Below the pieces are notes generated by a model, which ran no database searches, had not been told where the DNA came from, and worked only from the letters and a program-made list of their open reading frames with translations. Shown piece after piece: positions 16,952 to 52,691 of a DNA stretch of 60,494 nucleotides. The first letter of the stretch is position 1; each line of letters opens with the position of its first letter. A program made the position numbers and the translations under genes. Location: the NCBI GenBank assembly GCA_964636275.1, contig CAZWRN010000005.1, positions 1 through 60,494 on the forward strand, read 5' to 3'. This DNA is from an uncultured Gammaproteobacteria bacterium (GTDB lineage Bacteria; Patescibacteriota; Microgenomatia; Daviesbacterales; UBA10151).

Positions 16952-17026
16952 AAATAATCAAGTTACAAGATAACAAGAAACAAATAATTTGTATCTTGGT
17001 TATTGTATCTTAAAACTTAAATATAT
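16952..17026 (+). repeat. Heptamer-periodic hairpin spacer (CAAG/CTTG type)
   Basis: aatcaag ttacaag ataacaag ... ttgtat cttggtta ttgtat ctt. Confidence 0.75.
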
Positions 17027-20000
17027 ATGCAAAACAATTTAGTTGATTTTAATGCACTACAAGTACTGATTGCTTCACCAGAGCAGGTACGCTCATGGTC
17101 TTTTGGTGAGGTTACCAGACCAGAGACTATCAATTACCGAACTTTGAAAGCTGAAAAAGATGGGCTGTTTGCCGAGAATATTTTTGGTCCAACTAAAGAT
17201 TGGGAATGTTATTGCGGTAAATACAAAAGAATTCGTTATCGAGGTGTGATCTGTGATAAATGTGGTGTTGAAGTTACTCAGTCAAAAGTGCGACGAGAAA
17301 GAATGGGTCACATCACTTTGGCTACTCCAGTTGCTCATATTTGGTTTGTTAAAGGTGCTCCATCAAAACTGTCTTTGATTTTGGATTTGACTATGAAAAA
17401 CTTAGAAGCAGTTATTTACTTTGCTTCTTACCTGGTCATCTCTGTTGATGCTGATGCTAAAGCTAAAGCTATCGAATCTTTACAGAAACAACTTGATGCT
17501 AAACAAGAAGAATCCAAGAAAAACCTGGAAAAACAGATTGCTGAACTCGAAAAAACTCAAGAGGATGCCTCAAAAGAGCTAAAGAAAAAGATCACTGATA
17601 ATGAAAAGTTTGAATTAGCAGCATCTGAATCTCAGTTGCAAAGCCGAATGCAGATCGCTAAATTGCGAGAACAAAATCAAGTTGAACAGGGTCAGTTGGA
17701 AGAGATTTATAAAACAGTTACTGAGCTGGTCAAATCAATAGCTCCATCCAAGCTGATTTCTGAAGACGAATATAGTAAATTGTTTGAATACGATGTAGCC
17801 GAATTTTTGAAAGTTGGTATGGGTGCTGAAAGTTTGTTAGAAGTACTTTCTACCATTGATCTTGATAAATTGGCAGCTGATCTGCGACTTGAAGTATCTA
17901 AATCTTCTGGCCAGCGACATATCAAAGCAACTAAAAGACTTCGACTGATCGAAGGAATGAGAAGTGCTAAAGTCAATCCAGCCTGGATGATCATGAGCGT
18001 GCTTCCCGTCTTGCCACCAGATTTGCGACCAATGGTTCAATTACCTGGAGGTCGATTTGCTACCTCTGATTTGAACGATCTGTATCGACGAGTGATTAAC
18101 CGTAACAATCGATTGAAGAGACTGATCAACTTGGGTGCCCCAGAGATCATTTTGCGCAATGAAAAACGTATGTTGCAGGAAGCAGTTGATTCTTTGATCG
18201 ACACTACCAACCGCACAACTAGACGAGCAGGCACACACCAATTGCGATCTTTGTCTGAAATGTTGCGAGGAAAACAGGGCCGATTCCGACAAAACTTGTT
18301 GGGTAAGCGTGTGGATTACTCTGGTCGATCCGTTATCATCGTTGGTCCAAAACTCAAACTTCACCAAGTTGGTTTACCAAAAGAGATGGCTTTGGAGATG
18401 TTCAAACCATTTGTATTGCGGGAATTAATTTCCCGAGGTTTGGCTTCCAATGTTAAAGGAGCTAAAAATGTGCTGGAATTCCGACCACCAGAAGTTTGGG
18501 ATATTTTGGAAGAAGTTATCAAAGACCATCCAGTATTGATCAATCGTGCTCCAACTTTGCATAGATTGGGTATTCAGGCTTTCTTCCCTGTTTTGATTGA
18601 TGGAAATGCTATTCAAATCCACCCATGTATTTGTGCTGGATTTAATGCTGACTTTGATGGAGATCAGATGGCTGTTCACGTCCCATTGTCTGAAAAAGCT
18701 AAAGAAGAAGCTAAGAACTTGATGATGGCAAAAGAAAATATTTTACGACCATCAAACTCTAGTCCAATCAACGTTCCAAACCGAGAAATGGCGTTGGGTT
18801 CTTACTATGTCACTTCAGTTGATAAAACATTTGAACTTGGTGAAAAAGTTTATGGTGAGCAGGATGCAGTTTTTGCTTATCAGATGGGTGAACTAAATCT
18901 TCGAGCTCTTATTAAGGTCGCTATGAAGGGTGACGTAGTTGAAACGACTGTTGGACGAATTATCTTTAATAGTTTCCTCCCTGAACAGTTGCGATTTGTT
19001 AATGAAACTATCAACAACTCAGGAATTGCTAAGATCATCATGAAAGCTTTTAAACAGTTCCCTAAAGATGAAGTGGCGAAACTGATTGATGATATTAAAG
19101 AGTTTGGTTTCTGGGGTGCTACTATCTCAGGTTTGTCAGTTGGGATATTTGATAATAATATTATCTCGGAAAAAAGAGATTTGATCGCCAATGGTGATAA
19201 AGAGATTTTGGAGATTGAAGAAAATCTAGCCAAAGGTTTGATCACTGATGAAGAACGACGAGCCTTGGCTCAAGAGGTTTGGACCAGAGTTGGTGATGAA
19301 ATCGTGCGAAAGACAATCGCAGCTATCCCAAGTGATTCTCCAATTGAGATCATTATGAGATCTGGAGGTGCTCGTGCAACTACCGCCCAGATCGCGCAGA
19401 CTGCTGGTATGCGAGGATTCTCAGTTGATCCAACTGGTAAGATCGTAGAATTGCCTACCAAGTCTAACTACCGAGAAGGATTGGGTGTGTTTGAGTACTT
19501 TACCTCTTGTCGAGGTGCTAGAAAAGGTGTGGCTGACCGTGCTATCCGAACTGCTGATGCTGGTTATCTGACTCGAAGATTGGTTGATGTGTCTCACGAT
19601 GTCATCATTCGAATTGAAGATTGTAACACTACAAATGGGACTGTTCTGGAAGTTCCTAAAAACAATCCAGGTCAGGTATCTACTCGATTCTTGGGTCGAA
19701 AAGTGGTTGGTAAAGTAGTTGATGCTAAGACCAAAAAGACCATTATTGAAGATGGAGCATTTATTGAAGAAGCTGAAGTAGATGTGTTGGCTTCTGCTGA
19801 TGTTGAAGAGATCACTGTTCGAACTCCTTTGACTTGTGATTCTAAGTATGGACTTTGTGCAGCTTGTTACGGTTTGGATCTATCAAGTCGAAAACCAGTG
19901 GAACTTGGTACGCCAGTAGGTGTTATTGCTGCTCAAGCTATTGGTGAGCCAGGTACTCAGCTGACTATGCGTACCTTCCACTCAGGAGGTGTTGTTGGTG

Positions 20001-20719
20001 CGGATATTACACAGGGTTTGCCACGTGTTGAAGAGCTGTATGAGGCACGGGTACCAAAAGCAGTGGCCCCAATTGCTGAAATTGCAGGTAAAGTAACCAT
20101 CTCAGAAACTGAAGAAGGTACAGTAGTTCGGGTTCGCACAACATCTAAACCTCATACTGAGAGAGAATACGCTATTCCAAAAAATGCGACCTTACTGGTA
20201 AATGATGGTGACACTATCGAAGCTGGTACTCAAATAATTGGTGGTCATTTGGATATTAGAGAAGTTTTGCGAATTCAGGGGCTACGAGCAGCTCAGCGAT
20301 ATATCGTTGATGCAACTCGTGAAGTGTATGAATCTCAGGGTGTGCAGATCAACGAAAAGCATTTTGAAGTGATCGTACGAAAGATGTCTGATAAAGTTCG
20401 TGTTGAGTCACAAGGTGATACAGTATTGCTTCCAGGTGAAGTAATCAACCGAACCAAATTTGAAGAAGAAAACACTCGGATTTTGGCTGAAGGTGGTGAA
20501 CCAGCAACTGCTGCAGTGATCATCTTGGGTATTACCAGAGCTTCACTTCAGACTGAAAGCTTCTTGTCAGCTGCCTCATTCGTTGAGACAACTACAGTCC
20601 TTTCAGAGGCTGCAACTACTGGAAAGATTGATAAGTTGCTTGGATTGAAAGAAAATGTTATTATAGGACGTCTGATACCTACGAGCGAAGATAGAGCGAA
20701 GCTCAACCAAGTTGCTTAG
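17027..20719 (+). CDS. rpoC: RNA polymerase beta-prime subunit
   Basis: Zn-finger [33 protein letters not shown]. Confidence 0.99.
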
Positions 20720-20828
20720 GTATTAGATCAGACGTCCTTAACCTTGAGGTTTGTAAAAACCGAAAGGAGTTATAGGTCGACTAATTCCAACAAGTGAAGA
20801 TCGAGCAAAGCTCAATCAAGTAGCTTAA
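20661..20828 (+). other. 109-nt insert with synonymously recoded duplicate of the last 18 rpoC codons
   Basis: TTATAGG direct repeat (20661/20770); [18 protein letters not shown] encoded twice; 12-bp antisense arm. Confidence 0.9.
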
Positions 20829-20957
20829 TGGTTTAGAACACTGCAAAGTTTTTTAACTTTGTAGAGTAATCGCCTAAAAGCGATGAAGGGTTTTTTAGAA
20901 TTACTTTTGTATTCTTCAGATCCTTCATTTGCTTTCAGAAAATTAGGAAATTATAAA

Positions 20958-21380
20958 ATGCCGACGATTAATCAATTAGTTAAAAAAGGACGATCAAAAG
21001 TAGTCAAGAAAGTGAAGGCTACCGCTTTGCGACGTTCTTACAACGGATTACACCGGGTTTATAGCAGTACATCAAATCCTCAAAAACGGGGAGTTGTGAC
21101 ATTGGTTCGAACTATGACTCCAAAGAAACCTAACTCAGCTTTGCGAAAAGTGGCTAGAGTCCGACTTTCCAACCGTACTGAGGTAACAGCCTACATTCAG
21201 GGGATTGGGCATGATTTAGCTGAGCACGGTATCGTTTTAGTTCGAGGCGGACGTGTTAAAGATTTGCCAGGTGTGAAATACCATTTAGTACGAGGCAAGC
21301 TCGATTTGGGTGGAGTTCAAAAACGAACAACCTCCAGATCAAAATATGGTGCTAAAAAACCAATGGCTAAAGCAGCCTAA
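20958..21380 (+). CDS. rpsL: 30S ribosomal protein S12
   Basis: [28 protein letters not shown]; start moved to ATG 20958. Confidence 0.99.
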
Positions 21381-21507
21381 AAGAAAGGAATAACCAAGAA
21401 ACAAGATACAAGTACCAAACAAAAACCATTTAATCAATTAAATAATTATTAAATTGAAAATTGTTTGGAGAACTTGAATAATTGGAAACTTGATTAATTA
21501 ACTAAAA
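21381..21507 (+). repeat. Heptamer-periodic hairpin spacer (CAAG/CTTG type)
   Basis: aaccaag aaacaag atacaag ... gaacttg aataattg gaaacttg; preceded by AAGAAAGGAA. Confidence 0.7.
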
Positions 21508-21981
21508 ATGCGAGGAAGAAAAGCAATCAAACGAATAGCTCTGCCAGATCCGATCTATAACAGTCGGGTTTTGACCAAGCTGATAAATAAAATTATGTTG
21601 GATGGTAAAAAAACCATTGCGCAATCTTTGGTTTATAAAGCTATGGCCGAGATTGAAAAATCTGGTAAAAATCCTATGACTGTCTTTGATACAGCCATGG
21701 CTAATATCTCTCCAAAAATGGAAGTTCGACCACGACGAGTTGGTGGTGCTTCTTATCAGGTACCAGTTGAAGTAAGAGGAGATCGAAAAGAATCGTTAGC
21801 AATTCGATGGTTGGTAGACGCTGCTCGAAAAAGAGGTAATGGTCAGTACAAAACATTTGCCGCTAAGCTGGCAGCTGAGATCCAAGATGCAGCAAATGGT
21901 GCAGGAGCTGCTGTACGAAAGAAAGAAGATACATTGAGAATGGCGGAGGCGAATAAAGCTTTTGCCCACTTCAGATGGTAA
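21508..21981 (+). CDS. rpsG: 30S ribosomal protein S7
   Basis: [24 protein letters not shown]. Confidence 0.99.
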
Positions 21982-22276: not shown

Positions 22277-22537
22277 ATGACTAAGCCAATTGACGAAAAA
22301 TTACTCCGACAAAAGCTGGAGATGTGGACAAAAAAAGTTAACGATCTAGAAAAAGAATATGAAGTAACCATGGTTGCTCGAGGTGAAGCGGCTCGTGAAG
22401 GTGATTTGCGAGAAAATGCCGCTTATCAGATGTTGACTGAAAAAGGTGAATTCATTTCAGCTCAAATTGGAAACACTAAAAAGATTATTGTCGAATTAAA
22501 ATCCCAGCTAGGTGAAGAGTTGTCCGAAGTCGCTTAG
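22277..22537 (+). CDS. GreA/GreB N-terminal coiled-coil domain protein (no C-terminal domain)
   Basis: ARGEAAREGDLRENAAYQ matches the Gre acidic tip; only 86 aa. Confidence 0.8.
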   Translation: MTKPIDEKLLRQKLEMWTKKVNDLEKEYEVTMVARGEAAREGDLRENAAYQMLTEKGEFISAQIGNTKKIIVELKSQLGEELSEVA

Positions 22538-26586: not shown

Positions 26587-26613
26587 TTTTATTTACGAAA
26601 AGAAATTAGTTGC

Positions 26614-26635
26614 AACCACCGAAAGGTGGTTTTTT
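26614..26635 (+). terminator. Intrinsic terminator after rpsJ
   Basis: AACCACC-GAAA-GGTGGTT plus T tract. Confidence 0.85.
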
Positions 26636-26643
26636 ATTGCCTA

Positions 26644-27025
26644 CGTCATTTTGAGGAGCGAAGCGATGTAAGAATCTTAATCAATTATGTCTCTATAAAG
26701 GTCAGTGAGTGAAGGATTAAATTTTTTGATTAGCTGCGCTTTCTTTTTACGAGAATACTTCTTTAACTGTTGTTCCCTTTCGACCATTGAATGAGCTGAA
26801 CCAATGATTTCATAATATAGTAGATCATGACATTTGTATCTTTTCGTAAATCCTTCGAATTGTTCATTTTTGTGTTGCCAAATCTGCCTGCCAAGTTGCT
26901 TGATGATCCAACGCAAAGAACTGTTCTAGTGAAATTGCTAACAATGTAAACTGAATAAATTTTGTTTTTCATGTTTTAATTAGATCATGACGCGTATATA
27001 CTTTGTAAGTTCGCTCATGATGACG
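26644..27025. mobile_element. REP-like (CGTCAT...ATGACG) cassette enclosing a GIY-YIG gene
   Basis: Left arm CGTCATTTTGAGGAGCGAAGCGATGTAAGAATCT; right arm AGATC...CGCTCATGATGACG; terminal 6-bp inverted repeat. Confidence 0.5.
26677..26972 (-). pseudogene. Frameshifted GIY-YIG nuclease (UPF0213/YhbQ-like)
   Basis: YSVYIV..LCVG in one frame joins WQHK..GFTKRY..LLYYE..REQQLK in another; one base missing near 26883. Confidence 0.8.
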
Positions 27026-27085
27026 GTTGAGGGTTTATTATATAAACTAACTTGATGCATGCCGGCCGGCTGATTGCATTGTTAA

Positions 27086-27343
27086 TTAGGCTGCTGCCTG
27101 TTCCTGAAGAAATCCAGTGATTTCACTCATACGAGACTGAAAATTTTGAACTTCTTCTGGAAATAAAACAACTGAATTTCTTTTAGCAGGCTGCCCAGTC
27201 TCAACTAAACGAGATTCAGTTATTTTTAAGTATCGTTTGTTGTTGGAAGCTTCTCTGATGTCAAAGAAATATGTTTTCTTACCGCAGTTTAAAACTGAAG
27301 ATTTAATAGCTTTTTTTGGTTCTGTTTGATCCAATTCACTCAC
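27086..27343 (-). CDS. DUF3276/PUR-like single-stranded nucleic-acid-binding protein
   Basis: KTYFFDIREASNNKRYLKITESR...RNSVVLFPEE. Confidence 0.8.
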   Translation of the reverse strand: MSELDQTEPKKAIKSSVLNCGKKTYFFDIREASNNKRYLKITESRLVETGQPAKRNSVVLFPEEVQNFQSRMSEITGFLQEQAAA

Positions 27344-27622
27344 CCCCTTTCCTTAAATGTCGTTACCCTTGAGTTCTAAAAGTTAAACCTGACCAATCAA
27401 TGCTTACTTGATGAGTTTTCTCGAATTTTATTCTTTGGCTTAACCCTTGAATATGTAACTCGCTTGAAAATTGTAGCGAGTTACATGCATCTGTCAAACT
27501 TGATTTGTAGTTAAATCTGAATATGACAGCTGTAGTGAACTCTCCATTAAAATACCCGAATAAAACCCTACTGTCAAGAGATTAATTTGAATTTGTTTTT
27601 ATGAAGATATATACTGCTCCTG

Positions 27623-28387
27623 ATGGAAATATTTTGGATTGTCTTAGCGGTGTTAGCTATATTCCTATTTTTTTCTTCGGTGCGGATTGTACAAGAGTAT
27701 GAGCGGGCGGTTATTTTCTTTTTAGGCCGATGTACAGGTGTCAGGGGTCCAGGGTTGATTCTTTTAATTCCTATATTGGAGTCGATGCAAAAAGTGACAT
27801 TGAGAACAATCACGATGGATATTCCTGCTCAGAAGATTATTACCAAAGATAATGTTTCGATTGATATCTCTGCTGTGGCTTACTATCACATTATTGATCC
27901 TAAAAAATCTGTGATTGCAATTGAAGATGTTTATGACGCTGCCAATCAAATTAGTCAAACAACGGTTCGTAATGTGGTTGGTCAATTTACACTTGATCAA
28001 TTACTTTCGGATCGGACTAAAGTAAATGAGCAGATTCGGAAGGTGATTGATGTTCATACAGAGCCTTGGGGTATTCAGGTAAGCATTGTTGAAATTAAGG
28101 ATATAGTTTTACCGGAAAATATGCAGAGGGCGATGGCTAAAGAAGCGGAGGCTGAAAGAGAGAGAAGAGCTAAAATCGTGGCTGCTGAAGGTGAATTACA
28201 GGCTGCAGAAAAGCTAGGTTTGGCTGCTGATGTGATGCAGAAACATCCAGTGGCTTTGCAGCTTCGAACTTTGCAAACAATGGCTGAAATATCGGTGGAA
28301 AAGAATTCAACAATTATATTTCCGGCTCAATTTATGACTACGGTCCAAGAAGCTATTAAAATGTTGAAAACTGATTCTATTAAGTAA
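27623..28387 (+). CDS. SPFH/stomatin (band 7) family protein
   Basis: ERAVIFFLGR, TKDNVSI, AMAKEAEAERERRAK, ALQLRTLQT. Confidence 0.93.
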   Translation: MEIFWIVLAVLAIFLFFSSVRIVQEYERAVIFFLGRCTGVRGPGLILLIPILESMQKVTLRTITMDIPAQKIITKDNVSIDISAVAYYHIIDPKKSVIAIEDVYDAANQISQTTVRNVVGQFTLDQLLSDRTKVNEQIRKVIDVHTEPWGIQVSIVEIKDIVLPENMQRAMAKEAEAERERRAKIVAAEGELQAAEKLGLAADVMQKHPVALQLRTLQTMAEISVEKNSTIIFPAQFMTTVQEAIKMLKTDSIK

Positions 28388-28408
28388 TCTCTTTAAAATA
28401 CCTATAGC

Positions 28409-28593
28409 TTGCAATTAGCTTCAATTCTGTGTTAAAATTACGAAAGAACTGAATGATTACGTCAGGATAGTTTTTACAGTTTTAAAAAAATCAGTAAGTT
28501 GTGCGTCCTCCGATGGGATACGACAATTGAAACAGGCACATTTTACTGAGTGAGAGCCCGCAAGGCCTCACTTTTTTTGTTGTTAAAGGCATT
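28409..28593 (+). promoter_or_regulatory. rplC promoter and structured leader with terminator-like hairpin
   Basis: TTGCAA-N18-TAAAAT (extended -10); AGTGAG..GCC/GGC..CTCACT plus T7 at 28549-28578. Confidence 0.6.
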
Positions 28594-31837: not shown

Positions 31838-31913
31838 AAGGAATGATAAGTCGCAAGTGACTAGAGTCTAGGAAGACAACCTTGATTCTTGACTCTTGCC
31901 ACTAGAAACTAAA
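31838..31913 (+). repeat. Heptamer-periodic hairpin spacer
   Basis: tgataag tcgcaag tgactag agtctag ... cttgatt cttgact cttgcca ctagaaa cta. Confidence 0.8.
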
Positions 31914-32351
31914 ATGGAATATATAACGATACAGAAGAATATTACACAGTCACCTCGAAAGGTGCGACTAGTGGCTGATATGGTCAGAAAAATGGATCCA
32001 TATCGAGCATTGGATGTTTTGCAGTTTACAAACAAAGCTGCTGCACTTCCTTTGGCTAAAGCGATTAAATCTGTTTTGGCAAATGCAGGTAATGCTGAAG
32101 GTTTGAGTTTTGTCAGTATTCAGGTAAATGAAGGTCTGAAGATGAAAAGATATCGAGCAGGTACTGCTGGTCGAGGTCGTGGTCGTCCATACAGACGTCG
32201 AATGAGTCATATCAAGATTGTGGTTTCTGATGAGGGAATGGTAAATGTACCAGTTACTATGCCAGCACCTAAAGTAGAAACTTTTGAAAAAGTTGAAGCA
32301 ATTGAAGCAGCTGAAATTAAAGAAGTAAAGGAGGATAAAGCTAAGAAATAA
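31914..32351 (+). CDS. rplV: 50S ribosomal protein L22
   Basis: QSPRKVRLVAD, RRRMSHIKIVV; start moved to ATG 31914. Confidence 0.97.
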   Translation: MEYITIQKNITQSPRKVRLVADMVRKMDPYRALDVLQFTNKAAALPLAKAIKSVLANAGNAEGLSFVSIQVNEGLKMKRYRAGTAGRGRGRPYRRRMSHIKIVVSDEGMVNVPVTMPAPKVETFEKVEAIEAAEIKEVKEDKAKK

Positions 32352-32395
32352 TAATTGGAATACTTGATTATTGTTTCTTGGATACTTAATTAAAA
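32352..32395 (+). repeat. Partial heptamer spacer (3' arm type)
   Basis: taattgg aatacttg attattg tttcttg gatactt. Confidence 0.5.
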
Positions 32396-33037: not shown

Positions 33038-33080
33038 AGTCTAGTCGCAAGTGACTGGAGTCTAGAAACTAAAAACTAAT
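33038..33080 (+). repeat. Short heptamer spacer
   Basis: agtctag tcgcaag tgactgg agtctag ... ctaaaaa ctaat; shares units with 31838-31913. Confidence 0.7.
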
Positions 33081-35433: not shown

Positions 35434-35490
35434 TGAGTGCAATTTGAGATAGTTTGATCTATAATTATAGGTCGGAAGGATAAAGAATAG
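35421..35490 (+). other. 54-nt insert creating an alternative rplE 3' end
   Basis: GAAGG direct repeat (35421/35475); precise removal gives ...MPFMKDKE*. Confidence 0.6.
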
Positions 35491-35564
35491 AGATTAGCAA
35501 ATAGCGATTAGATAATAGTTAATTAATTTAGAAATCTAATCACTAATCACTATTCACTGATAAA
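35491..35564 (+). repeat. Heptamer-periodic hairpin spacer (TAG/CTA type)
   Basis: agattag caaatag cgattag ataatag ... ctaatca ctaatca ctattca ctga. Confidence 0.85.
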
Positions 35565-35744: not shown

Positions 35745-35823
35745 AGCTTCTAGCTTCGTCTAGAAAGAAAGGAAAACTAAATATATTTCGGATTTCGAAA
35801 TTCGGATTTAGAGTTTATTAATT
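35745..35823 (+). repeat. Small hairpin plus heptamer run
   Basis: TTCTAG-CTTCGT-CTAGAA; AAGAAAGGAA; tcggatt tcgaaat tcggatt tagagtt. Confidence 0.6.
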
Positions 35824-36219: not shown

Positions 36220-36297
36220 GAAAGGAATAAACCAAGAAATAATATAACAAGAAACAAATAATTGTATCTTGAATATTGTCTCTTGGAAAACTTAATT
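36220..36297 (+). repeat. Heptamer-periodic hairpin spacer (CAAG/CTTG type)
   Basis: aaccaag ... aacaag aaacaa ... ttgtat cttgaata ttgtct cttgg; preceded by GAAAGGAA. Confidence 0.75.
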
Positions 36298-36849
36298 ATG
36301 AGTAGAATCGGTAACAATCCAATAGTTTTGCCACAAGGAGTTGAAGTAACTCTAAGTGATGATATGGTAGCTGTTAAAGGGCCAAAAGGTGCTTTGGAGA
36401 TGCCACTTCATAAATCCATTAAGGTTGAGCAGGAGGATGGTAAATTGATTATAAAAAGAAAAAGAGGCAATCAAGAAGGTCGTTCCATGCATGGTCTGAT
36501 GAGAACATTGGTAAATAATATGGTTGTTGGTGTAACTACTGGTTGGACCAAAAATTTAGAAATGGTTGGTGTGGGGTATCGGGCTCAGGGTGGTGGAAAT
36601 GCGTTGATATTAAATGTAGGATACTCTCATCCGGTGAAGATGGAAGCGCCTGAAGGGATCACATTTGCAGTTGCGGAGAATACAAAATTATCAGTGACTG
36701 GAATTGATAAAGCCTTGGTTGGACAGATTGCTGCCAATATTCGGGCTGTAAAACCACCTGAGGTATATAAAGGTAAAGGTATTCGTTATGTTGGTGAATA
36801 TGTCAGAAAGAAAGCTGGTAAAGCTGGAAAGGCCGCCGGAGGAAAATAA
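36298..36849 (+). CDS. rplF: 50S ribosomal protein L6
   Basis: MSRIGNNPI, GVGYRA, PEVYKGKGIRY; start moved to ATG 36298. Confidence 0.99.
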   Translation: MSRIGNNPIVLPQGVEVTLSDDMVAVKGPKGALEMPLHKSIKVEQEDGKLIIKRKRGNQEGRSMHGLMRTLVNNMVVGVTTGWTKNLEMVGVGYRAQGGGNALILNVGYSHPVKMEAPEGITFAVAENTKLSVTGIDKALVGQIAANIRAVKPPEVYKGKGIRYVGEYVRKKAGKAGKAAGGK

Positions 36850-36919
36850 ATAGGCAGTAGTAAGTAGGATTTGATACATTCCTACTAACTACCACCTACA
36901 GCCTACTAACTAAATATAT
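36850..36919 (+). repeat. Heptamer-periodic hairpin spacer (TAG/CTA type)
   Basis: taggcag tagtaag tagga ... ctactaa ctaccac ctacagc ctactaa cta. Confidence 0.8.
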
Positions 36920-40138: not shown

Positions 40139-40252
40139 GAAGTTTGATGTGCGAAGCTAGAGAAAGAAGTGAGAGGTGGGATTATTCACACTTCAAAAAT
40201 TCAACAATCCATCTTCACATTTCCCAAATCTCACAACCAAAAGAATAAAAAT
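40139..40252 (+). repeat. Heptamer-periodic hairpin spacer (GA/TC type)
   Basis: tgtgaga agtttga tgtgcga agctaga ... tccatct tcacatt tcccaaa tctcaca. Confidence 0.7.
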
Positions 40253-41032
40253 ATGGGATTAATACCAGTAAACAAAGATCAGTTGGAGCTAATGCGCAAA
40301 AGTGGAGTCATCAGTGCAAAAGCTCTAAAAAAAGCCTTAGAAACCGCGCAAGTCGGGGTTTCTGAGCTCGAGTTGGATAAAGCAGCCGGAGATGAGATCT
40401 ATAAACGAGGTGGTGATTGGTCGTATAAAACGGTTCCTGATTATCATTGGGCAACTTGTGTAACGGTCAATCAAGAAGTAGTTCATGGCATCCCCAAAGA
40501 GAGAAAAATTCAAAATGGGGATTTAGTGAGTGTAGATTTGGCGGCTATGTATAAAGGATGGCACACTGATAATGCCTGGACGATATTGGTGGGTCAGGAG
40601 ACATCTGACAAGAGTCAAGAATGGGAAGAGAAGAAACGATTTTTACAGGTTGGAGAAGAAGCTCTATTTTTGGGTATCAAGCAGGCAGTGGCAGGAAACC
40701 GAGTGGGTGACATTTCAGCAGCTATTCAGAAAAAGGTTGAAGGAGCTGGATACCATGTAGTTAGAGCATTAGTAGGACATGGGGTAGGAAGAGAGATGCA
40801 TGAGGAGCCAGAAGTGCCGGGTTATGGTCGTCCGGGGACTGGACCTGTATTAAAAGAAGGTATGACGCTGGCAATTGAAGTGATATACGCGGCCGGGACT
40901 TCCGAAGTAGTTATTGCCGATGACAACTGGACATATGAGAGTGAAGATGGATCAATGTCTGGACTTTTTGAAATGAGTATTGTGGTAGGCAAAAAGAAGG
41001 CTGAAATACTGACTGATTGGCGCAATGTGTAA
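40253..41032 (+). CDS. map: Methionine aminopeptidase type I
   Basis: VVHGIP, SVDL, HTDNA, GHGVG..MHEEP, AIE; start moved to ATG 40253. Confidence 0.97.
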   Translation: MGLIPVNKDQLELMRKSGVISAKALKKALETAQVGVSELELDKAAGDEIYKRGGDWSYKTVPDYHWATCVTVNQEVVHGIPKERKIQNGDLVSVDLAAMYKGWHTDNAWTILVGQETSDKSQEWEEKKRFLQVGEEALFLGIKQAVAGNRVGDISAAIQKKVEGAGYHVVRALVGHGVGREMHEEPEVPGYGRPGTGPVLKEGMTLAIEVIYAAGTSEVVIADDNWTYESEDGSMSGLFEMSIVVGKKKAEILTDWRNV

Positions 41033-41197
41033 AATCGGTTAGCAGTTTTCTGTTGTCGGATATCAGATTTGAGTTTGCCTGGTTTCAGTTATCTGTAATA
41101 AGTGTTTTTTGATTTAACAGAATTGACCGAAAACGGATCAACTTTTTTCAGATACCTGAGAACGGAAAACCGATAACTGCCTTTATAGGCTTCTACC

Positions 41198-41226
41198 TTG
41201 TAAATCTGTGCGTAGTTTGTTACAAT
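41198..41226 (+). promoter_or_regulatory. infA promoter
   Basis: TTGTAA-N17-TACAAT with extended -10 TG. Confidence 0.6.
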
Positions 41227-41284
41227 AACCAAAGTCCTTTTTAAGGCCCAATTATTTTGTGCTAAAAAGGAGTAGAAAAGTGTC

Positions 41285-41536: not shown

Positions 41537-41613
41537 AAGTGACAAGAGTCTAGAGTCAAGAGTCTAGGCAGAAAGGGTCACTAGTCACTAGACTCTAGCG
41601 ACTAGTTACTAAT
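41537..41613 (+). repeat. Heptamer-periodic hairpin spacer
   Basis: tgacaag agtctag agtcaag agtctag ... ctagtca ctagact ctagcga ctagtta cta. Confidence 0.88.
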
Positions 41614-41730: not shown

Positions 41731-41830
41731 GAAAGGAAAAAATTATAAAGTCAAAATTATAAATGATAAAACAAGGTTAACTTCGTTCAAGTTTTATAAT
41801 TTATACTTTATAATTTGAAATTTAAATTAA
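41731..41830 (+). repeat. Heptamer-periodic hairpin spacer (AAA/TTT type)
   Basis: aaattat aaagtca aaattat aaatgat ... ataattt atacttt ataattt gaaattt; preceded by GAAAGGAA. Confidence 0.75.
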
Positions 41831-42205: not shown

Positions 42206-42282
42206 CTTATAGTTGTTAGCTTCCAGCTTTTAGTCTAATCACTAGAAGCTACAAGCTTAAAGCTGAAAGCAAAAAAATAAAT
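42206..42282 (+). repeat. Heptamer-periodic hairpin spacer (AGC/GCT type)
   Basis: ttatagt tgttagc ttccagc ttttagt ... ctagaag ctacaag cttaaag ctgaaag. Confidence 0.8.
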
Positions 42283-42681: not shown

Positions 42682-42760
42682 GTAGAGAATAGCAATTAGA
42701 GATTAGTAATTAGTTTTGAAACTATTTACTATTTGCTATTTACTAATTACTAAATCAAAT
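42682..42760 (+). repeat. Heptamer-periodic hairpin spacer (TAG/CTA type)
   Basis: agaatag caattag agattag taattag ... ctattta ctatttg ctattta ctaatta cta. Confidence 0.88.
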
Positions 42761-43363
42761 ATGGGTAAATATAACGGACCAAAACGAAGATTATCACGCC
42801 GAGAAGGTGTAGCATTATTTAAGAAAGATCTTAAAGCAATTGAAAGAAAAGGAGCAGTCCCTCCAGGTATGCGAGGCACTAAAACTCGTTCACGAGTTAC
42901 AGAATATGGTACTCAGTTGCGAGAAAAACAAAAAGCCAAACGGATGTTTGGTATGACAGAAAAGCAATTTAGAAAAACCTATGAAGAGGCTGCTCGAGTA
43001 AAAACAGCAACTGGTAAGAAAATGTTGGAATTGCTGGAAACTCGTTTGGATAATGTTGTCTATCGTCTTGGTTTTGCTGCTTCTCGAGCCCAGGCTAGAC
43101 AGTTGGTAGGTCACGGACATGTGGTTGTGGATTCTAAAAAACTCAACATTCCTTCCGCACAAATACGGGTAAATTCAGTAGTTGCAATTTCTCCAAAAAT
43201 AGTAGATAATACACAGATCAAAAAGAATTTGGATGAGAATCCAGATGTTCCTGCATGGCTTGAAAGAAAAGGCCTGTCAGGAAAAATTGTGCGTCTCCCA
43301 GAAAGAGATGAGATGGAGAAAGGTGTATCTGAACAGTTGATCGTTGAGTTCTACTCTCGATAA
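42761..43363 (+). CDS. rpsD: 30S ribosomal protein S4
   Basis: EYGTQLREKQK, LETRLDNVVYRLGF, IVEFYSR; start moved to ATG 42761. Confidence 0.99.
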   Translation: MGKYNGPKRRLSRREGVALFKKDLKAIERKGAVPPGMRGTKTRSRVTEYGTQLREKQKAKRMFGMTEKQFRKTYEEAARVKTATGKKMLELLETRLDNVVYRLGFAASRAQARQLVGHGHVVVDSKKLNIPSAQIRVNSVVAISPKIVDNTQIKKNLDENPDVPAWLERKGLSGKIVRLPERDEMEKGVSEQLIVEFYSR

Positions 43364-48416: not shown

Positions 48417-49252
48417 ATTTTTTCCAGTACTACTAAGATAAAGAGAAGAAACCCTAGCAGATTGTTGAGCCAGGGAAAATACCAGTAAATTCTACTCAGA
48501 GAAATCTTATTATTAAATACGGCTATAAGAGGTATTAAAGGATATAACATTGTTAGTAGGGAATAAGGATACAGCTGGGATATCTGTAAAGTTATGCCGG
48601 CAAAAATAATCCATAGTAATGAGCACAAAAGGAGTGATGGGGTTTGTCCAAAAAAAATTGCTGAGGTTTTCAGCTGAGCTTTTTTATCGGCTTCAATATC
48701 GGGAATAGCGGAGAAAAGATGCATGGCGACAGCCCAGCAAGAGATTGCCAGCATGATTGGCCAACTCAGCTGATTGGCTGTCAGTTGATATCCAATAAGT
48801 CCCGGCAAGATATATAGCACATTGGAGGCAGAATCTATAATTGGTTTAGATTTAAATCGGAGTGGGGGGGCTGAATAAAATGCAGCTAAAAAGATGAACA
48901 GAATAAAAAAAATTCGAGCAATCAAAGAAGGTAACAATAAAAAGGCCGGTAGTGCCAGTAAGAGTGAAAGCAAAAGGAATAATACTAATTTGGTTGATTC
49001 GGTTTTTTGAAGTCGATGTTCCTGCTGGCCTTTTTTACTATTATACTGATCGGTGTCTTGGTCGAATAAGTCATTTATGCCATATAAGAAAAAATTAGCT
49101 GGTAATAGGAAAAAAAAGAGCAGATAAAAAAAGGTGAGTGTGTAAAATTCAGTTAAGTCTTGGATCCCGATGGTATAACCGACTAAAAACGTCCCGCCAA
49201 GATAGCCCCAAAATTTTGGTCGGGATATTTCAATCAAGGTTGAGATCTTCAT
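48413..49252 (-). CDS. UbiA-family prenyltransferase, lycopene elongase (CrtEb/LyeJ)-like
   Basis: ISRPKFW, YGINDLFDQDTD, YSAPPLRFK, IPDIEAD; next to crtI/crtB. Confidence 0.7.
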   Translation of the reverse strand: MKISTLIEISRPKFWGYLGGTFLVGYTIGIQDLTEFYTLTFFYLLFFFLLPANFFLYGINDLFDQDTDQYNSKKGQQEHRLQKTESTKLVLFLLLSLLLALPAFLLLPSLIARIFFILFIFLAAFYSAPPLRFKSKPIIDSASNVLYILPGLIGYQLTANQLSWPIMLAISCWAVAMHLFSAIPDIEADKKAQLKTSAIFFGQTPSLLLCSLLWIIFAGITLQISQLYPYSLLTMLYPLIPLIAVFNNKISLSRIYWYFPWLNNLLGFLLFILVVLEKI

Positions 49253-49707
49253 AGTGATAAAGAGTTGCGTCCCAGCTGATATAAAATATGAGAGACTGGT
49301 GGTTTGACTTTAGTCCGATAGACGATAAACGGGTCCCGATAAATCTGCTCTGCTGTCCATTCATACATATTGGTGGCGGTTTTGACTGGTATTAATAATT
49401 CAGTTGGTAAATAAGCAAATCCAATTTTGCCTTGTTGATTGATCTGCCGGTATTTTTTTACTTGATGGCGGATAAATTTTTTAAATTGTTCTGGTTGTTT
49501 TTGGGCTGTTTCATAATGAAGTTCTTTGTTAAACTGGTAAAACTGTTTTTTTTGCTGAGGAATGATATCGACATAGTTGTCTGCAGTTCTGACAAAGCTA
49601 TAAAAACTAAATACATCATCGCGAATAGAGGCTGGGAAAAATAAACTCGAGTAAAAAAAAGTCTTGCTACCTTTTCTGAAAATATTAAAAATCTTACTAT
49701 TTATCAT
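49249..49707 (-). pseudogene. Phytoene/squalene synthase (CrtB-like) with apparent large in-frame internal deletion
   Basis: GSKTF...FVRTADNYVD N-terminus joined to the ...IPVKTA..Y.W...I...P..VY C-terminus; 152 aa; second Asp-rich motif missing. Confidence 0.6.
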
Positions 49708-51172
49708 TTTTTAATATCTCTTCAGCGACAATTTGCGAAGAGATCATGACCATAGGGACTCCGGTGCCAGGATGATTGTAGAGTCCAGTGTAGTATAAAT
49801 TTTTAACTTTTTTACTTTGATGACCTGGTCTAAAAAAGGCCGACTGAAAAAATGTTGGAGCCATTCCCAGAGCCGTTCCTTTAAAGGCGTGATAATCTTT
49901 AATAAAATCACGTTGAGAGTATATTCTTTTGACTACGATATCTTGTTCAAATTCATCACCAATATTTTTTTGTAAATCTTTAATAATTTTTTGATAATAT
50001 TTTTCTCTGACTAAGTCTGTATCACGCAAACCAGGAGCAACTGGTACGAGTATAAAGATATTCTCCATCCCTTTTGGCGCAACGCTGGGATCTGTTTTAG
50101 AGGGACAGCTGATATAGTAAGAGGGATTTGAGTGCCAGGATGGCTGATCAAAAATTGCGTTAAAATGCTGATTCCAGTCATTGGCCAATACCAGGTTGTG
50201 ATGTTGTAAATTTTTAACTTTTCTCTTGACACCCAAATAAATAATAAAAGCAGAGGGGGAGATGATCTTTTTATTCCAATATGCATCAGGATAGGATTGA
50301 GAGGATTTTGGTAAAAGCTTTGTTTCGGTAAACTGCATATCGGCATTGGATATGACTACATCGGCCATATATTGGCCTTTGGTTGTTTGAACTCCGACAA
50401 CCTGGTTGTTATCTAGCAGGATTTTTTTAACTTCATTATTATATAGGTACGATACCTGATATTTTTTACCTAAATCGACCATTTTTTCAACTATTGCACC
50501 AAATCCCCCCATCGGATACCAAACACCTAGATTCATATCCATATGTGCCATAATGGCGTACATGCCGGGAGTGTTTTTGGGTGACCCCCCAAGAAAGACC
50601 ATAGTATATGACACTATTTTTCTGGCTTTATCTGATGAAAAAAATCTGGCTGTAAATTTTTCCATGGTATCAAAGACATTTAATTTAGGACCTTCTTTAA
50701 GAAGTCTTTTATTTACAAAGCTGAAAATGTTTTTATACTCCTTATAAATAAAATGCTCCATTGAAACATCGTACTGATATTTAGATTGAGCCAAATATTT
50801 TTTTAATTTTTCGGCACCATTTTCTTCTAGACTGTCAAACAACTGATAAACTTGGTTTAGATCGGGTGAAATATCTAGTTTGTCCTCTGGAGAGAAAAAT
50901 ATTCTGTAAGCCGGATCGAGTCTTTTAAGTTGGTATAAATCAGTTGGTTTAAGACCAAATTCAGCAAAGTATTTTGCAAAGATCTCTGGCCCGAGATACC
51001 AGGAAGGCCCCATGTCAAAAGTAAAGCCTTTTGTTTTCCAGACTTGCGCTCTTCCCCCGGCCATTTTATTTTTTTCAATCACCTGAACTTTGTAGCCTTG
51101 TTTGGCTAGTAGGGGTGCAAGAGAGAGTCCTCCGAAACCTGCGCCGATAATAATAGCTTTCTTTTGTTTCAT
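49697..51172 (-). CDS. crtI: Phytoene desaturase family protein
   Basis: IIGAGFGGL, GFTFDMGPSW, YPMGG, SNAD, HPGTGVPMV. Confidence 0.85.
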   Translation of the reverse strand: MKQKKAIIIGAGFGGLSLAPLLAKQGYKVQVIEKNKMAGGRAQVWKTKGFTFDMGPSWYLGPEIFAKYFAEFGLKPTDLYQLKRLDPAYRIFFSPEDKLDISPDLNQVYQLFDSLEENGAEKLKKYLAQSKYQYDVSMEHFIYKEYKNIFSFVNKRLLKEGPKLNVFDTMEKFTARFFSSDKARKIVSYTMVFLGGSPKNTPGMYAIMAHMDMNLGVWYPMGGFGAIVEKMVDLGKKYQVSYLYNNEVKKILLDNNQVVGVQTTKGQYMADVVISNADMQFTETKLLPKSSQSYPDAYWNKKIISPSAFIIYLGVKRKVKNLQHHNLVLANDWNQHFNAIFDQPSWHSNPSYYISCPSKTDPSVAPKGMENIFILVPVAPGLRDTDLVREKYYQKIIKDLQKNIGDEFEQDIVVKRIYSQRDFIKDYHAFKGTALGMAPTFFQSAFFRPGHQSKKVKNLYYTGLYNHPGTGVPMVMISSQIVAEEILKNDK

Positions 51173-51768
51173 AGTTTTGAAATTTTATAGTCTCCTTCTC
51201 TGATTAATTCAAAATTTTCATCTAGCAATTTAATTATAGTAGATGAACGACCAGTTTTATCCCCATCATCCAGATAAAAATCAATCTGGTTTTCAAAATA
51301 TTGTTCAGCCTCTTCAATATTTGATGCCGGCTTTTCACCCTCAAAATTGGCGCTTGGTGCGACCAATGGGCCCGATATTTTTAACAGTTGAATCAGCCAG
51401 TTAGTTTTTGGTAATCGAAAAGCTAAAGAGTTTTTTCCCCGATGCAGATAAGCTAAATTTTTACCAATAGCTGGAACTATAATGCTGACTGGATTAGGCC
51501 AGAGTTTTTTTAAAATTATTTCTTGCTTTGGGTCAATTATGATTCCAAAATTTTTTATATCCTGGAGGGTAGGTATTAATACAATTAATGGCTTATCACT
51601 TGATCTTTTTCGAAGTTGATAGACCTTTTCGACTGATTGTTGGTTGAGAGCTGAGGTAACAATTCCATATTGAGTGTCAGTAGGAATTATTGCGATTGCG
51701 CCACTTTTTAACTTATTCCCCAGATCTTGTATTTGAATATTTGTCAGATTTTTCAACTGATATTTCAT
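51169..51768 (-). CDS. L-threonylcarbamoyladenylate synthase (TsaC/Sua5/YrdC)
   Basis: PTDTQYG, KRSSDKPL, WPNP, APSAN, SSTII. Confidence 0.9.
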   Translation of the reverse strand: MKYQLKNLTNIQIQDLGNKLKSGAIAIIPTDTQYGIVTSALNQQSVEKVYQLRKRSSDKPLIVLIPTLQDIKNFGIIIDPKQEIILKKLWPNPVSIIVPAIGKNLAYLHRGKNSLAFRLPKTNWLIQLLKISGPLVAPSANFEGEKPASNIEEAEQYFENQIDFYLDDGDKTGRSSTIIKLLDENFELIREGDYKISKL

Positions 51769-51790
51769 GCTTGAATACTAACATTGAAAA

Positions 51791-52099
51791 TCAGAAGTTA
51801 AAAGAGCGAAATTTGATCAAAATACCAGCCAGATCGGGGATTGTTAAAAATAAAATCAGTCCAAAAACAACTAAGCCGAGGACTGTTATAAAAAAACTGG
51901 TACTTTTGCTTTTACCCAGCAAAATCTCTAAACCAGAAAATATCAGTAAAACTGGCCAAAAAGGAGATAACTGCTTCCATATACTCCAAGGAATAATATT
52001 AAAGTTGTTTAGTAAAAAGATAAATCCTACGATTACTAAAAATAGCGGCCAGAAAATACTGACTGATTGTTTGGAGGAAGAATTAGTGTCTTCGGTCAT
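51791..52099 (-). CDS. DUF5668/LiaF-like small membrane protein
   Basis: LVIVGFIFLLNNF...WKQLSPFWPVLLIFSGL. Confidence 0.65.
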   Translation of the reverse strand: MTEDTNSSSKQSVSIFWPLFLVIVGFIFLLNNFNIIPWSIWKQLSPFWPVLLIFSGLEILLGKSKSTSFFITVLGLVVFGLILFLTIPDLAGILIKFRSFNF

Positions 52100-52560
52100 T
52101 TTTTTATTAAAAAGATTAGTCCGGCAATTATTAAAATGATTGGCCAGAAACGGCCAAGGTCAAGATTGTCAAAAACGCCAAAGTTTTTAAACAAAAAGAA
52201 AAACCCTGCTGAAATTATCAATACAGCCCACCAAAAGCGAGAATTTTCTTTTGATGATTTATTCAAACCCAATGTATGTGTAAATGATTTGGCGCGGTCT
52301 TTTATCTCTTCTAGATTGGACTGGACACGGCTATTTGGTTCTTTATCAATTTGAGATTTTGTTGGTATCAGCAGCCACATGACTAAATAGATTATCGCCC
52401 CAACCCCATTTAATAATGTGAGTAAAATAAAACCAATCCGAATAATAGTGGGATCAATATTGAGATATTCACCCAAACCCCCGGCAACTCCCCCAATCAT
52501 TCGATTGGCTGTTGAACGGTAAAGTTGGTTTGAAGTTGGGAGATTGGCGGCTTTTTTCAT
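52096..52560 (-). CDS. PspC-domain membrane protein with C-terminal DUF5668-like segment
   Basis: LYRSTANRMIGGVAGGLGEYLNIDPTIIR. Confidence 0.9.
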   Translation of the reverse strand: MKKAANLPTSNQLYRSTANRMIGGVAGGLGEYLNIDPTIIRIGFILLTLLNGVGAIIYLVMWLLIPTKSQIDKEPNSRVQSNLEEIKDRAKSFTHTLGLNKSSKENSRFWWAVLIISAGFFFLFKNFGVFDNLDLGRFWPIILIIAGLIFLIKK

Positions 52561-52599
52561 GTCTGTATTTTAACAAATGTTGTCAAACAAAGTATAATT

Positions 52600-52691
52600 A
52601 ATTAGTTAGTAGGTGATAGTTGGTAGTTTGTAGGATAGCTACAATTGATTTATTTCTACTAACTACAACCTACTGACTACTTACTAACTAC
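52600..52691 (+). repeat. Heptamer-periodic hairpin (TAG/CTA type) outside the ribosomal operons
   Basis: gtgatag ttggtag tttgtag ... ctactaa ctacaac ctactga ctactta cta, ending at the ATG. Confidence 0.8.

Follow-up and report, generated by a model that had tools for sequence, protein, structure and literature searches.

The stretch analysed here, called the window below, is the whole 60,494 nt of contig CAZWRN010000005.1 (GenBank assembly GCA_964636275.1), and our subject is a set of its intergenic spacers in which tandem 7-nt units (heptamers) are followed by a complementary arm, so that the spacer folds back into a hairpin. The plus strand from 13.5 to 46.4 kb holds rpoB-rpoC, rpsL-rpsG-fusA-tuf-rpsJ and the S10/spc/alpha string of ribosomal-protein genes, with glycosyltransferase and cell-envelope genes on both sides. 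The rpoC gene is unsplit, the L30 gene is absent between rpsE and rplO, and G+C content is ~38%. EF-Tu is at most 75% identical to any entry of the species-representative genome set, with phyla of the candidate phyla radiation (CPR) ranking top, and S3 shares 74-82% identity with proteins that carry the name Candidatus Daviesbacteria; judged by these identities, the host is placed as a Daviesbacteria-like CPR member and not a cyanobacterium. Our comparison set of relatives comprised 85 loci: besides the window, S3 searches contributed 3 contigs and S11 searches 80 metagenome contigs. A further 80 loci found through EF-Tu, which is too conserved for finding close relatives, formed a cross-phylum control set.

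Small AT-rich heptamer hairpins occupy about half of the ribosomal-protein intergenic gaps and together take up ~1.4 kb of the genome's most constrained operons. We count 17 heptamer sites within 60 kb (Table 1), with units 7 nt long, in tandem, and scattered over intergenic sites; the tally is 13 robust hairpins and 4 weaker ones, with one (map-infA) that the initial annotation had missed. That annotation listed about 16 hairpin spacers, and the periodicity it described stands, although three of them (rpsN-rpsH, adk-map and rpsC-rplP) fold weakly. The sites are concentrated in the RNA polymerase and ribosomal-protein cluster, where 16 of 37 junctions carry one, as opposed to none of 21 elsewhere in the window (p = 2e-4). 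Array density in relatives is likewise higher in this cluster (1.41 vs 0.58 per 10 kb, p = 0.003), in keeping with the enrichment in highly expressed operons that had been proposed.

To measure periodicity, 21 positions were slid over the whole window and a lag was scored where at least 17 of 21 matched, with block dinucleotide shuffles as the control. Lag 7 gave 31 such segments; the shuffles gave 0, as did lags 4, 5, 8, 10, 11 and 12. A lag-9 signal was traced to one unrelated tandem repeat at 53784-53949, and period 7 is the sole strong short period in the non-coding DNA of the window. All lag-7 segments are in non-coding DNA, except where they fall within the false 5′ extension of a TTG-start open reading frame (ORF). 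An independent pattern search of the window found 34 matches to TAG-N4-TAG-N4-TAG (0.28 expected) and 7 to CAAG-N3-CAAG-N3-CAAG (0.29 expected). Within each spacer the plus-strand TAG-pattern matches always lie 5′ of the minus-strand matches, which is the layout of a fold-back. Spacer by spacer, with corrected gene starts, the lag-7 z is 3.4-6.2 at 13 junctions (at most 2 of 200 shuffles), and at most of these the z of the minimum free energy (MFE) against dinucleotide shuffles is about −2.2 to −5.4. Both the 7-nt periodicity and the complementary 3′ arm claimed for these spacers are thus confirmed.

Correct gene starts matter for this result. True starts taken from conserved N-termini place rpsL at 20958, rplV at 31914, rplF at 36298 and rpsD at 42761, and four apparent half hairpins proved to be ORF-calling artefacts, their missing 3′ arms lying inside false TTG or ATG extensions. 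Mechanical calling starts ORFs at upstream TTG, GTG or ATG codons (20883, 31896, 36262, 40169 and 42716), so that false N-terminal extensions of rpsL, rplV, rplF, map and rpsD absorb the 3′ arms; public gene calls on related contigs have false extensions of the same sort. All three forward frames are closed in all spacers. The spacer sequences are identical in independent public assemblies and are therefore not assembly artefacts.

Table 1. Heptamer spacers of the window. SD, Shine-Dalgarno sequence; F1-F4, sequence families (see text); MFE z and lag-7 z against shuffles; x+y, SD-AUG distance in the predicted fold.
Spacer	Position	Strand	Family and units	Lag-7 z	MFE z	Details
rpoB-rpoC	16952..17026	+	F1 (CAAG/CTTG) fold-back	3.6	−3.0	SD GAGGAGG precedes rpoB stop; stem base pairs rpoB stop region with AACTTAA ~10 nt before ATG
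rpsL-rpsG	21381..21507	+	F1 arms ACCAAGA AACAAGA TACAAGT ... CTTG	2.2	−3.2	Clear hairpin, heptameric at basal part only; nested non-heptamer hairpin inside arms; non-coding SD GAAAGGA directly 3′ of stop
rpsS-rplV	31838..31913	+	F3: AGTGACT AGAGTCT ... CTTGACT CTTGCCA CTAGAAA CTAAA	5.0	−2.2	SD AAGGA after stop
rplV end and rplV-rpsC	32330..32395	+	5′ arm, last rplV codons; 3′ arm, F1-type CTTG array		−5.2	18-bp hairpin; MFE −15.6, 0/200 shuffles
rpsC-rplP	33038..33080	+	Short F3 copy (AGTCGCAAGTGACTGGAGTCTAG)	4.2	−1.5	CTA units, then ATG
rplP-rpmC	33501..33574	+	F2: AGATTAG CAAGTAG AGATTAG AAAATAG / CTAATCA x4-5	4.6	−2.6	
rplE-rpsN, second half	35470..35564	+	F2 copy; unit order as in rplP-rpmC	5.1 (whole spacer, 35434-35564)	−2.2 (whole spacer)	SD-like GGAAGGA precedes copy; unrelated small hairpin at 35453-35476
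rpsN-rpsH	35745..35823	+	ATTTCGG/ATTTCGA array	3.4	+0.2	Array core self-complementary, 3′ of SD GAAAGGA; small hairpins only
rpsH-rplF	36220..36297	+	F1 fold-back	2.1	−5.4	Non-coding SD GAAAGGA right after TAA; 3′ arm concealed in TTG-start ORF; x+y = 14 vs 69 linear
rplF-rplR	36850..36919	+	F4: TAGGCAG TAGTAAG TAGGATT / CCTACTA ACTACCA CCTACAG CCTACTA	4.2	−3.8	
adk-map	40139..40249	+	GAAGNNN units, then NNNCTTC/TTCANNN	4.4	−0.8	Period 7 clear, pairing weak; map start ~40250-40253
map-infA, first part	41033..41180	+	Period-7 hairpin, 148 nt, ~9 heptamers per arm	4.2 (whole spacer, 41033-41284)	−4.1 (whole spacer)	3′ of hairpin, promoter-like match 41198-41226, then ordinary SD AAGGAG for infA
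infA-rpmJ	41537..41613	+	F3 fold-back: AAGTGAC AAGAGTC TAGAGTC AAGAGTC / GGTCACT AGTCACT AGACTCT AGCGACT AGTTACT	6.1	−3.0	Perfect matches of 24-26 nt at other junctions in other genomes
rpmJ-rpsM	41731..41830	+	AATTATA/TTTATAA fold-back	3.6	−3.9	Non-coding SD GAAAGGA 5′ of fold-back; x+y = 14 vs 91 linear
rpsM-rpsK	42206..42282	+	AGCTT-core fold-back	5.0	−3.9	
rpsK-rpsD	42682..42760	+	F2 copy: TAGAGAA TAGCAAT TAGAGAT TAGTAAT / ACTATTT x3 ACTAATT ACTAAAT	6.2	−2.9	3′ arm concealed in TTG-start ORF
Upstream of PGA_cap (capA-like) gene	52595..52691	+	F4 copy	4.1 (region 52561-52691)	−3.8 (same region)	Abuts ATG, in divergent intergenic region; only clear copy outside ribosomal cluster; gene identified by Pfam PGA_cap

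Whole elements measure ~45-150 nt. The hairpins average 24 bp at 29% G+C, with stabilities typically of −11 to −25 kcal/mol per 70-100 nt; the stems are regular, and their interruptions are mainly symmetric mismatches (81 of 1x1, 28 of 2x2 and 16 of 3x3). Helix runs of 2 to 6 bp are all common, and the helix-length distribution has no sharp peak that would mark a structural unit; of the structural code of periodic short helices suggested by the initial annotation, the short helices are present and the strict code is not supported. Arrays begin at the upstream stop and end a few nucleotides before the ATG, as had been described, leaving A/T-rich 3′ tails of 3-15 nt; in the predicted MFE folds these tails and the start codons are unpaired.

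Hairpins in ribosomal operons might be intrinsic terminators or attenuators, or known autoregulatory leaders of ribosomal proteins, and the rpsL-rpsG spacer of E. coli is a target of S7. This explanation is largely refuted. A scan for a G+C-rich stem followed by a T-run matched only after tuf (26172) and rpsJ (26614), the true terminators, and flagged none of the heptamer spacers, none of which is followed by a T-run; intrinsic-terminator identity is thus ruled out. Covariance-model searches of Rfam gave no match at the gathering threshold and a single weak, unrelated one at E<=1, so that no curated RNA family or ribosomal-protein leader is matched. The presence of the same families at many junctions would, moreover, demand different ribosomal-protein ligands.

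A second proposal is that the imperfect 20-28 bp stems are RNase III-type processing sites or barriers to 3′-5′ exonucleases, which would segment and stabilise long ribosomal polycistrons in the manner of enterobacterial REP (repetitive extragenic palindromic) stabilisers. The mean stem length and the position at cistron boundaries fit, as does a copy between tRNA genes in a relative (see below), a site of necessary processing; transcript stability has also been proposed for hairpins of cyanobacterial short tandemly repeated repetitive (STRR) sequences (PMC2670836). Stems so AU-rich, so weak and broken every few base pairs would, however, be poor exonuclease barriers, and the missing start-proximal Shine-Dalgarno sequence described below is left unexplained. 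We consider this role quite unlikely.

Spacers were grouped into families by the z-scores of local alignments between them. F1 (CAAG / CTTG) comprises rpoB-rpoC, rpsH-rplF, rplV-rpsC and rpsL-rpsG; F2 (GATTAG / CTAATC) comprises rplP-rpmC, rplE-rpsN and rpsK-rpsD; F3 (AGAGTC / GACTCT) comprises rpsS-rplV, rpsC-rplP and infA-rpmJ; F4 (TAGTAGG / CCTACTA) comprises rplF-rplR and the copy upstream of the PGA_cap gene; five further spacers, with various core units, are singletons. Alignment z-scores include 19 for rpoB-rpoC and 12 for rplV-rpsC, each against rpsH-rplF, 10 for rpsC-rplP against rpsS-rplV, and 11.7 for the PGA_cap-upstream copy against rplF-rplR. Within a family the alignment extends through the loop and the 3′ tail, and the order of the degenerate units is constant among copies: all three F2 copies read TAGAGATTAG-CAAnTAG-nGATTAG-nAAnTAGTT. 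Such constancy is not the outcome of independent slippage; whole elements have therefore been copied from one stop-start junction to another, and this copying is as important as local slippage. The several sequence types noted earlier thus hold up as four families plus singletons, and not as independent inventions of units.

In blastn-short searches of every window spacer against ~2 Mb of comparison loci, F3 alone crosses genomes at E<=1e-3. It occurs in other Daviesbacteria-like contigs (L089, L107, L112, L147, L153 and L170) at non-orthologous junctions, with matches that are perfect over 24-26 nt even though S3 of L089 is only 76% identical to that of the window. Some F3 copies in relatives are partly translated as C-terminal extensions of ribosomal proteins; when read through, the F3 arms append lysine-rich tails to L22 and S17, where the 'loop' contains the SD and the 3′ arm contains the stop. 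A likeness of F1 to L147 and L094 is visible in alignment only, and the F3 core had no match among viral contigs.

Five genes in the cluster (rpsC, rplP, rplE, infA and rpsM) end in TAG stops (33037, 33500, 35433, 41536 and 42205) that adjoin TAG-containing arrays, the rplP stop being in phase with its array. These are all the TAG stops among the ribosomal-protein and infA genes; the other TAG stops of the region (rpoC, a GreA_N-like ORF and fusA) have no such arrays. The coincidence suggests that arrays were seeded from a stop-containing heptamer, or that the stop was replaced by the element.

Cores that recur at exact 7-nt spacing across three families (such as TAG/CTA and CAAG/CTTG) could be read as binding arrays in which a sequence-specific RNA- or DNA-binding protein recognises 3-4 nt every 7 nt. 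Candidates would be a post-transcriptional regulator (S1, Csp or CsrA-like, as proposed for the TAACTGA repeats of Beggiatoaceae) or a TRAP-like multimer. As with those repeats (PMC4679880), the arrays border directly on starts with no ribosome-binding site (RBS), and a gene for a PUR-like DUF3276 protein in the window is circumstantial support. We nevertheless hold this to be very unlikely: one protein cannot read the many unrelated heptamers found within and among genomes, single-strand binding does not explain an obligatory complementary arm, and the differences in conservation among unit positions have little statistical weight (mean z 0.2, p = 0.012).

Slippage in 7-nt steps can be seen directly among contigs with identical L16, S8 or S11 proteins, which are 97.8-100% identical to the window. 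In L083 the 3′ arm of rplP-rpmC is longer by one CTAATNA unit (+7 nt). In L177 and L178 it is the 5′ arm of rplF-rplR that is longer by 7 nt; this addition pairs with a pre-existing extra unit of the 3′ arm and takes the energy from −19.8 to −23.9 kcal/mol. These two clean +7 indels separate strains that are 99.2% identical, so arrays do gain units in 7-nt steps, and the repeat-generating process that had been suggested is real and works in heptamers. In L174 the rpsK-rpsD spacer is almost wholly rewritten and still folds (−17.4 vs −18.8), while six substitutions and one 1-nt insertion are the only differences in its flanking genes. One strain pair of 99.2% identity has no substitutions in its spacers (one single-nucleotide deletion and one +7 unit) against 38 in coding DNA.

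Expansion of orthologous junctions is sporadic. The median spacer in relatives is 0-6 nt at every ribosomal junction, with the operon boundary map-infA longer. The share of loci expanded to at least 40 nt varies among junctions from zero to about one third, and the window genome is expanded at ~15 junctions. Arrays in the relatives' loci number 79 at lag 7 and 2-20 at other lags. Among 126 expanded intra-operon spacers, lag 7 is the best lag in 58 and reaches z>=3 in 49, of which 38 also have an MFE z<=−2; hairpin-like folding (median MFE z −2.1) is seen in the spacers with lag-7 z<2 as well. One junction can carry different heptamer families in different genomes, and one family can occupy different junctions in related genomes.

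The test for partner arrays (at least two reverse-complement copies of the consensus with at most one mismatch) is underpowered for degenerate arms and gave a ~4-6x enrichment; partner arms were then scored by local complementarity z-scores. Among the EF-Tu loci, multiple arrays with a significantly complementary partner (26 of 62 arrays overall) occur under the labels Campbellbacteria, Zambryskiibacteria, Saccharibacteria, Acidobacteriaceae, Acidobacteriota and Terriglobia, and most remaining loci, including other Acidobacteriota and Saccharibacteria, lack multiple partnered heptamer arrays. Partners are nearly absent at other lags (1 of 51 at lag 6, 1 of 65 at lag 9). One Terriglobia locus (L020, 9449-9537) has a heptamer fold-back filling the spacer between tRNA-Tyr and tRNA-Gly genes (AGTGGTT AGTGGAT AGTGGTA ... 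GCTAGCC ACTAGCC ACTAGCA ACTAACC), with another array after tRNA-Gly.

The most informative functional feature, overlooked in the initial annotation, is a displaced Shine-Dalgarno sequence (SD). Tight junctions have an AAGGAGG-type motif within 25 nt of the ATG, in the order SD in the end of the upstream gene, stop, ATG, and a median SD-AUG distance of 8 nt (10-90%: 4-18). The hairpins sit exactly between the upstream stop, with its adjoining SD, and the ATG, in operons whose relatives are tight. An SD lies no more than 23 nt from the start at 11 of 16 tight junctions and at 0 of the window's 15 hairpin junctions (p = 7e-5). Proximal SDs in relatives are found in 5 of 47 heptamer spacers as opposed to 507 of 845 tight junctions (p = 1e-11). 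The only SD lies instead at the upstream stop, 5′ of the hairpin, at 10 of the 15 window junctions and in 30 of the 47 spacers of relatives, and SD 5-mers have a fourfold higher density in the initial 18 nt of heptamer spacers than in the final 23 nt. A non-coding SD (GAAAGGA, AAAGGAG or GGAGGT) directly follows the stop in 12 of 62 heptamer spacers; proximal SDs have been newly gained in five of the 62. Relatives that are tight at rpsH-rplF lack an SD altogether, and the window and L088, which carry unrelated heptamer families there, both have an SD at the beginning and an A/T-rich end at the ATG. The stop-(SD)-hairpin-ATG layout also occurs in an Acidobacteriota locus and in Zambryskiibacteria. 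By prediction, folding reduces the aligned SD-AUG distance from a linear median of 83 nt to 14 nt (x+y, interquartile range 7-17). We found no description of this SD-hairpin-AUG layout in the literature searched.

Our preferred interpretation, to which we give a probability of roughly 0.5, is that the elements are STRR-like, slippage-prone, copy-dispersed fold-backs that are tolerated, and possibly used, by looping out, which would keep the stop and the SD near the AUG. Each arm is a degenerate heptamer array and the second arm the reverse complement of the first; the transcript would fold back and the hairpin would loop out ~60-90 nt. At the stem's 5′ base, the SD and the terminating ribosome would then remain ~14 nt from the unpaired A/U-rich start region, giving a split RBS with translational coupling preserved, as in genes 25 and 38 of phage T4. 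Insertions unable to fold would break the coupling of essential ribosomal cistrons and disappear, which would account for the hairpin nature of nearly every expanded spacer in these operons. The complementarity itself looks DNA-made, both strands folding equally well, and was probably produced by inverted copying or template switching plus slippage and not honed as RNA.

Several observations weigh against a bridging role, which, unlike the descriptive and evolutionary statements (these rest on computed results), we infer from geometry and statistics. A stop-side SD is what would remain after any sequence had been inserted between stop and ATG, and the SD statistic can in part be explained without a function. 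No SD is recognisable on either side at 5 of the 15 window hairpin junctions and 12 of the 47 in relatives, and the folded median of 14 nt is somewhat above the usual 8. Sense and antisense strands fold with equal stability and without an excess of G-U pairs; selection on the RNA strand has thus left no signature, and an alignment of F2, the one family tried, gave only 2 compensatory pairs. The Terriglobia tRNA-spacer copy and the 5′-untranslated copy in the window indicate that the elements are not specific to translational junctions. Nor was a mobilising gene seen in the window, where Pfam searches of 30 non-ribosomal ORFs found no transposase, REP-associated tyrosine transposase (RAYT) or integrase, and comparison of filled with empty junctions made no target-site duplication evident.

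A rival reading is purely selfish or neutral DNA, in which small palindromic repeats (REP- or MITE-like, or products of slippage plus template switching) accumulate where they are harmless. The hairpin would then be a by-product, translation would proceed by SD-independent reinitiation or from A/U-rich leaders, and the leftover SD would be a relic. Dispersed families that occupy differing junctions in differing genomes, the sporadic lineage distribution, and copies between tRNA genes, in a 5′-untranslated region and even in coding regions of relatives all agree with it. So does complementarity that is symmetric at the DNA level and lacks a G-U excess. The non-coding SD kept directly 5′ of 12 hairpins and the rarity of new proximal SDs speak against pure neutrality, however, as does enrichment in the most expressed and most constrained operons and not in slack DNA. 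The absence of spacer substitutions in the strain pair above is a weak hint of constraint, and neither a transposase in the window nor a target-site duplication was found. We regard this alternative as somewhat doubtful. An extension that goes further than the looping-out interpretation, namely a self-propagating class shared across phyla (CPR, Acidobacteriota, perhaps cyanobacteria) that specifically colonised stop-start junctions and has now become an obligatory part of their RBSs, seems to us unlikely.

Were that obligatory version true, about half of the ribosomal-protein cistrons would need a weak AU-rich hairpin to fold between SD and AUG, and ribosome synthesis would be open to tunable control, in steps of +/-7 nt and sensitive to temperature or helicases. 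CPR genomes are tiny, yet in this one the repeat hairpins occupy the most constrained operons; if looping out suffices, a mutation-prone repeat can invade essential coupled operons harmlessly. If the split layout is functional, a mechanism known from two phage T4 genes would extend to a whole ribosomal regulon, and heptamer repeats, among them STRRs, long simple sequence repeats (LSSRs) and TAACTGA, would acquire a role open to testing, after 35 years without one. On the practical side, gene callers regularly absorb the arms as spurious TTG/GTG N-terminal extensions, short-read assemblies can break at the repeats, and the +/-7-nt polymorphisms are usable as strain markers.

Some further observations concern the relatives. 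Period-7 arrays also lie inside gene calls (L089 6742-6782, 7771-7815, 9888-9925 and 11661-11856; L153 12162-12330), examples in coding regions being GGCAACA x3 in L3 and TCGTCAG x4 in L4. In L111 (17534-17573, CTACTAA) and L099 (10363-10397, CTATGAA) arrays occupy the equivalent position in an apparent enolase-type gene, immediately ahead of a conserved S/LxEDPFAEDD motif. At infA-rpmJ a non-heptamer hairpin, AAGGACCTGC...GCAGAACCTTG(CC)TTTTTAA, is common to several relatives and is followed by a normal SD (L088 18720-18830, L106, L112 9364-9483, L114 6248-6304, L155 9372-9454 and L149 9288-9397); it may be a conserved leader for rpmJ/rpsM.

The window itself contains other features. The rpoC-rpsL spacer (20720-20957, 238 nt with the true rpsL start) folds with an MFE of −67.1 (z −5.6, 0/200 shuffles), has neither period 7 nor an Rfam match, and is a candidate leader for the rpsL-rpsG-fusA unit. 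The S10 operon is split between rpsJ and rplC by ~2 kb (26587-28593), which hold an ORF for a DUF3276 protein (PUR-like, nucleic-acid-binding) on the minus strand at 27086-27343, a short GIY-YIG-like remnant (26763-26972) with no Pfam match (L088 has a GIY-YIG gene there) and an SPFH/Band 7 gene at 27623-28387. Just upstream of fusA (22277-22537) is an 86-aa ORF with a weak match to the GreA/GreB N-terminal domain; a similar 74-aa gene precedes fusA in L089. The tandem repeat behind the lag-9 signal consists of ~17 short units of a 9-nt/19-nt repeat, [A/G]GAT[A/G]AGATC, with 86-93% matches and no heptameric character, and runs from the last 27 nt of the PGA_cap gene to 140 nt past its stop. 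A tRNA scan of the window found no tRNA.

Among known systems, the split RBSs of phage T4 have the same geometry. In T4 genes 38 and 25 a hairpin between SD and AUG is needed for efficient initiation and shortens the distance from 22 to 5 and from 27 to 11 nt, gene 26-25 being an intercistronic junction; the T4 hairpins are short, unique and mutation-tested (PMC3014915). Shared features are a linear SD-AUG distance above ~20 nt, the lack of a proximal SD and an intervening hairpin that, here by prediction only, shortens the spacing. The predicted looped-out segment of the window differs in being 45-100 nt of repeat DNA and in occurring at ~15 junctions.

REPs, bacterial interspersed mosaic elements (BIMEs), REPINs and miniature inverted-repeat transposable elements (MITEs) are, like the window elements, small imperfect palindromes in families dispersed over extragenic operon positions. 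REPs, however, are 20-40 nt palindromes with a GTAG or CGTC head (the GTAG head is described for some of them in PMC3733652 and PMC3116915), whereas the window elements are longer, have 7-nt-periodic arms and contain GTAG recurrently within F2 and F4 units and not as a single terminal head; no RAYT (Y1 transposase) was found in the window by Pfam. The arms act as inverted repeats; filled and empty junctions, when compared for a target-site duplication of the MITE kind, showed no clear one.

Direct heptamer repeats of TAACTGA lie just upstream of RBS-less starts in marine Beggiatoaceae, including inside ribosomal operons; they also occur sporadically in some cyanobacteria and Bacteroidetes, vary by 7-nt-step indels, and consist of a single heptamer with one inverted case in 170 and no partner arm (MacGregor 2015, PMC4679880). 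Heptamer arrays before starts without a canonical RBS in ribosomal operons, 7-nt indels and sporadic occurrence are common to both, and the many heptamers and obligatory complementary arm are not. The window has no perfect TAACTGA tandem; allowing up to 2 mismatches yields only two near-matches, both on the minus strand. The LSSRs of Mrazek et al. (2007), as summarised in PMC4679880, have heptanucleotides as the commonest long-unit class, occur in sporadic lineages and have been proposed to arise by slippage; that summary describes them as direct arrays, with no fold-back or junction specificity, unlike the fold-backs here.

The cyanobacterial precedents that had been invoked for these spacers are real (PMC2670836, PMC3488679). 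In the Nostoc tRNA-Leu intron the P6b hairpin is built of degenerate heptamers, with variants that differ in repeat copy number (PMC3488679), and as in the window two heptameric arms pair; P6b is, however, a single locus in a group I intron with no link to translation initiation, whereas the heptamer fold-backs treated here occupy dozens of stop-start junctions. STRR heptamers form hairpins between hupS and hupL in Nostoc, Anabaena and Lyngbya, for which stability or translational coupling has been proposed (PMC2670836). Like STRRs, the window elements have tandem 7-nt units at many dispersed intergenic sites, hairpins between co-transcribed genes, and 7-nt strain differences. The STRR consensus units are CCCCAGT (STRR1), TTGGTCA (STRR2) and CAACAGT (STRR3); tandems of these are absent from the window even with 2 mismatches. 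Unlike STRRs, the elements belong to a non-photosynthetic CPR host, reach an extreme density in the ribosomal super-operon, have an SD 5′ of the hairpin, and fall into families set by whole-element paralogy. In kind they match the cyanobacterial STRR hairpins; compared with the known heptamer repeats they differ in the CPR host, the unit sequences, the obligatory arm, the density and the SD-hairpin-AUG layout.

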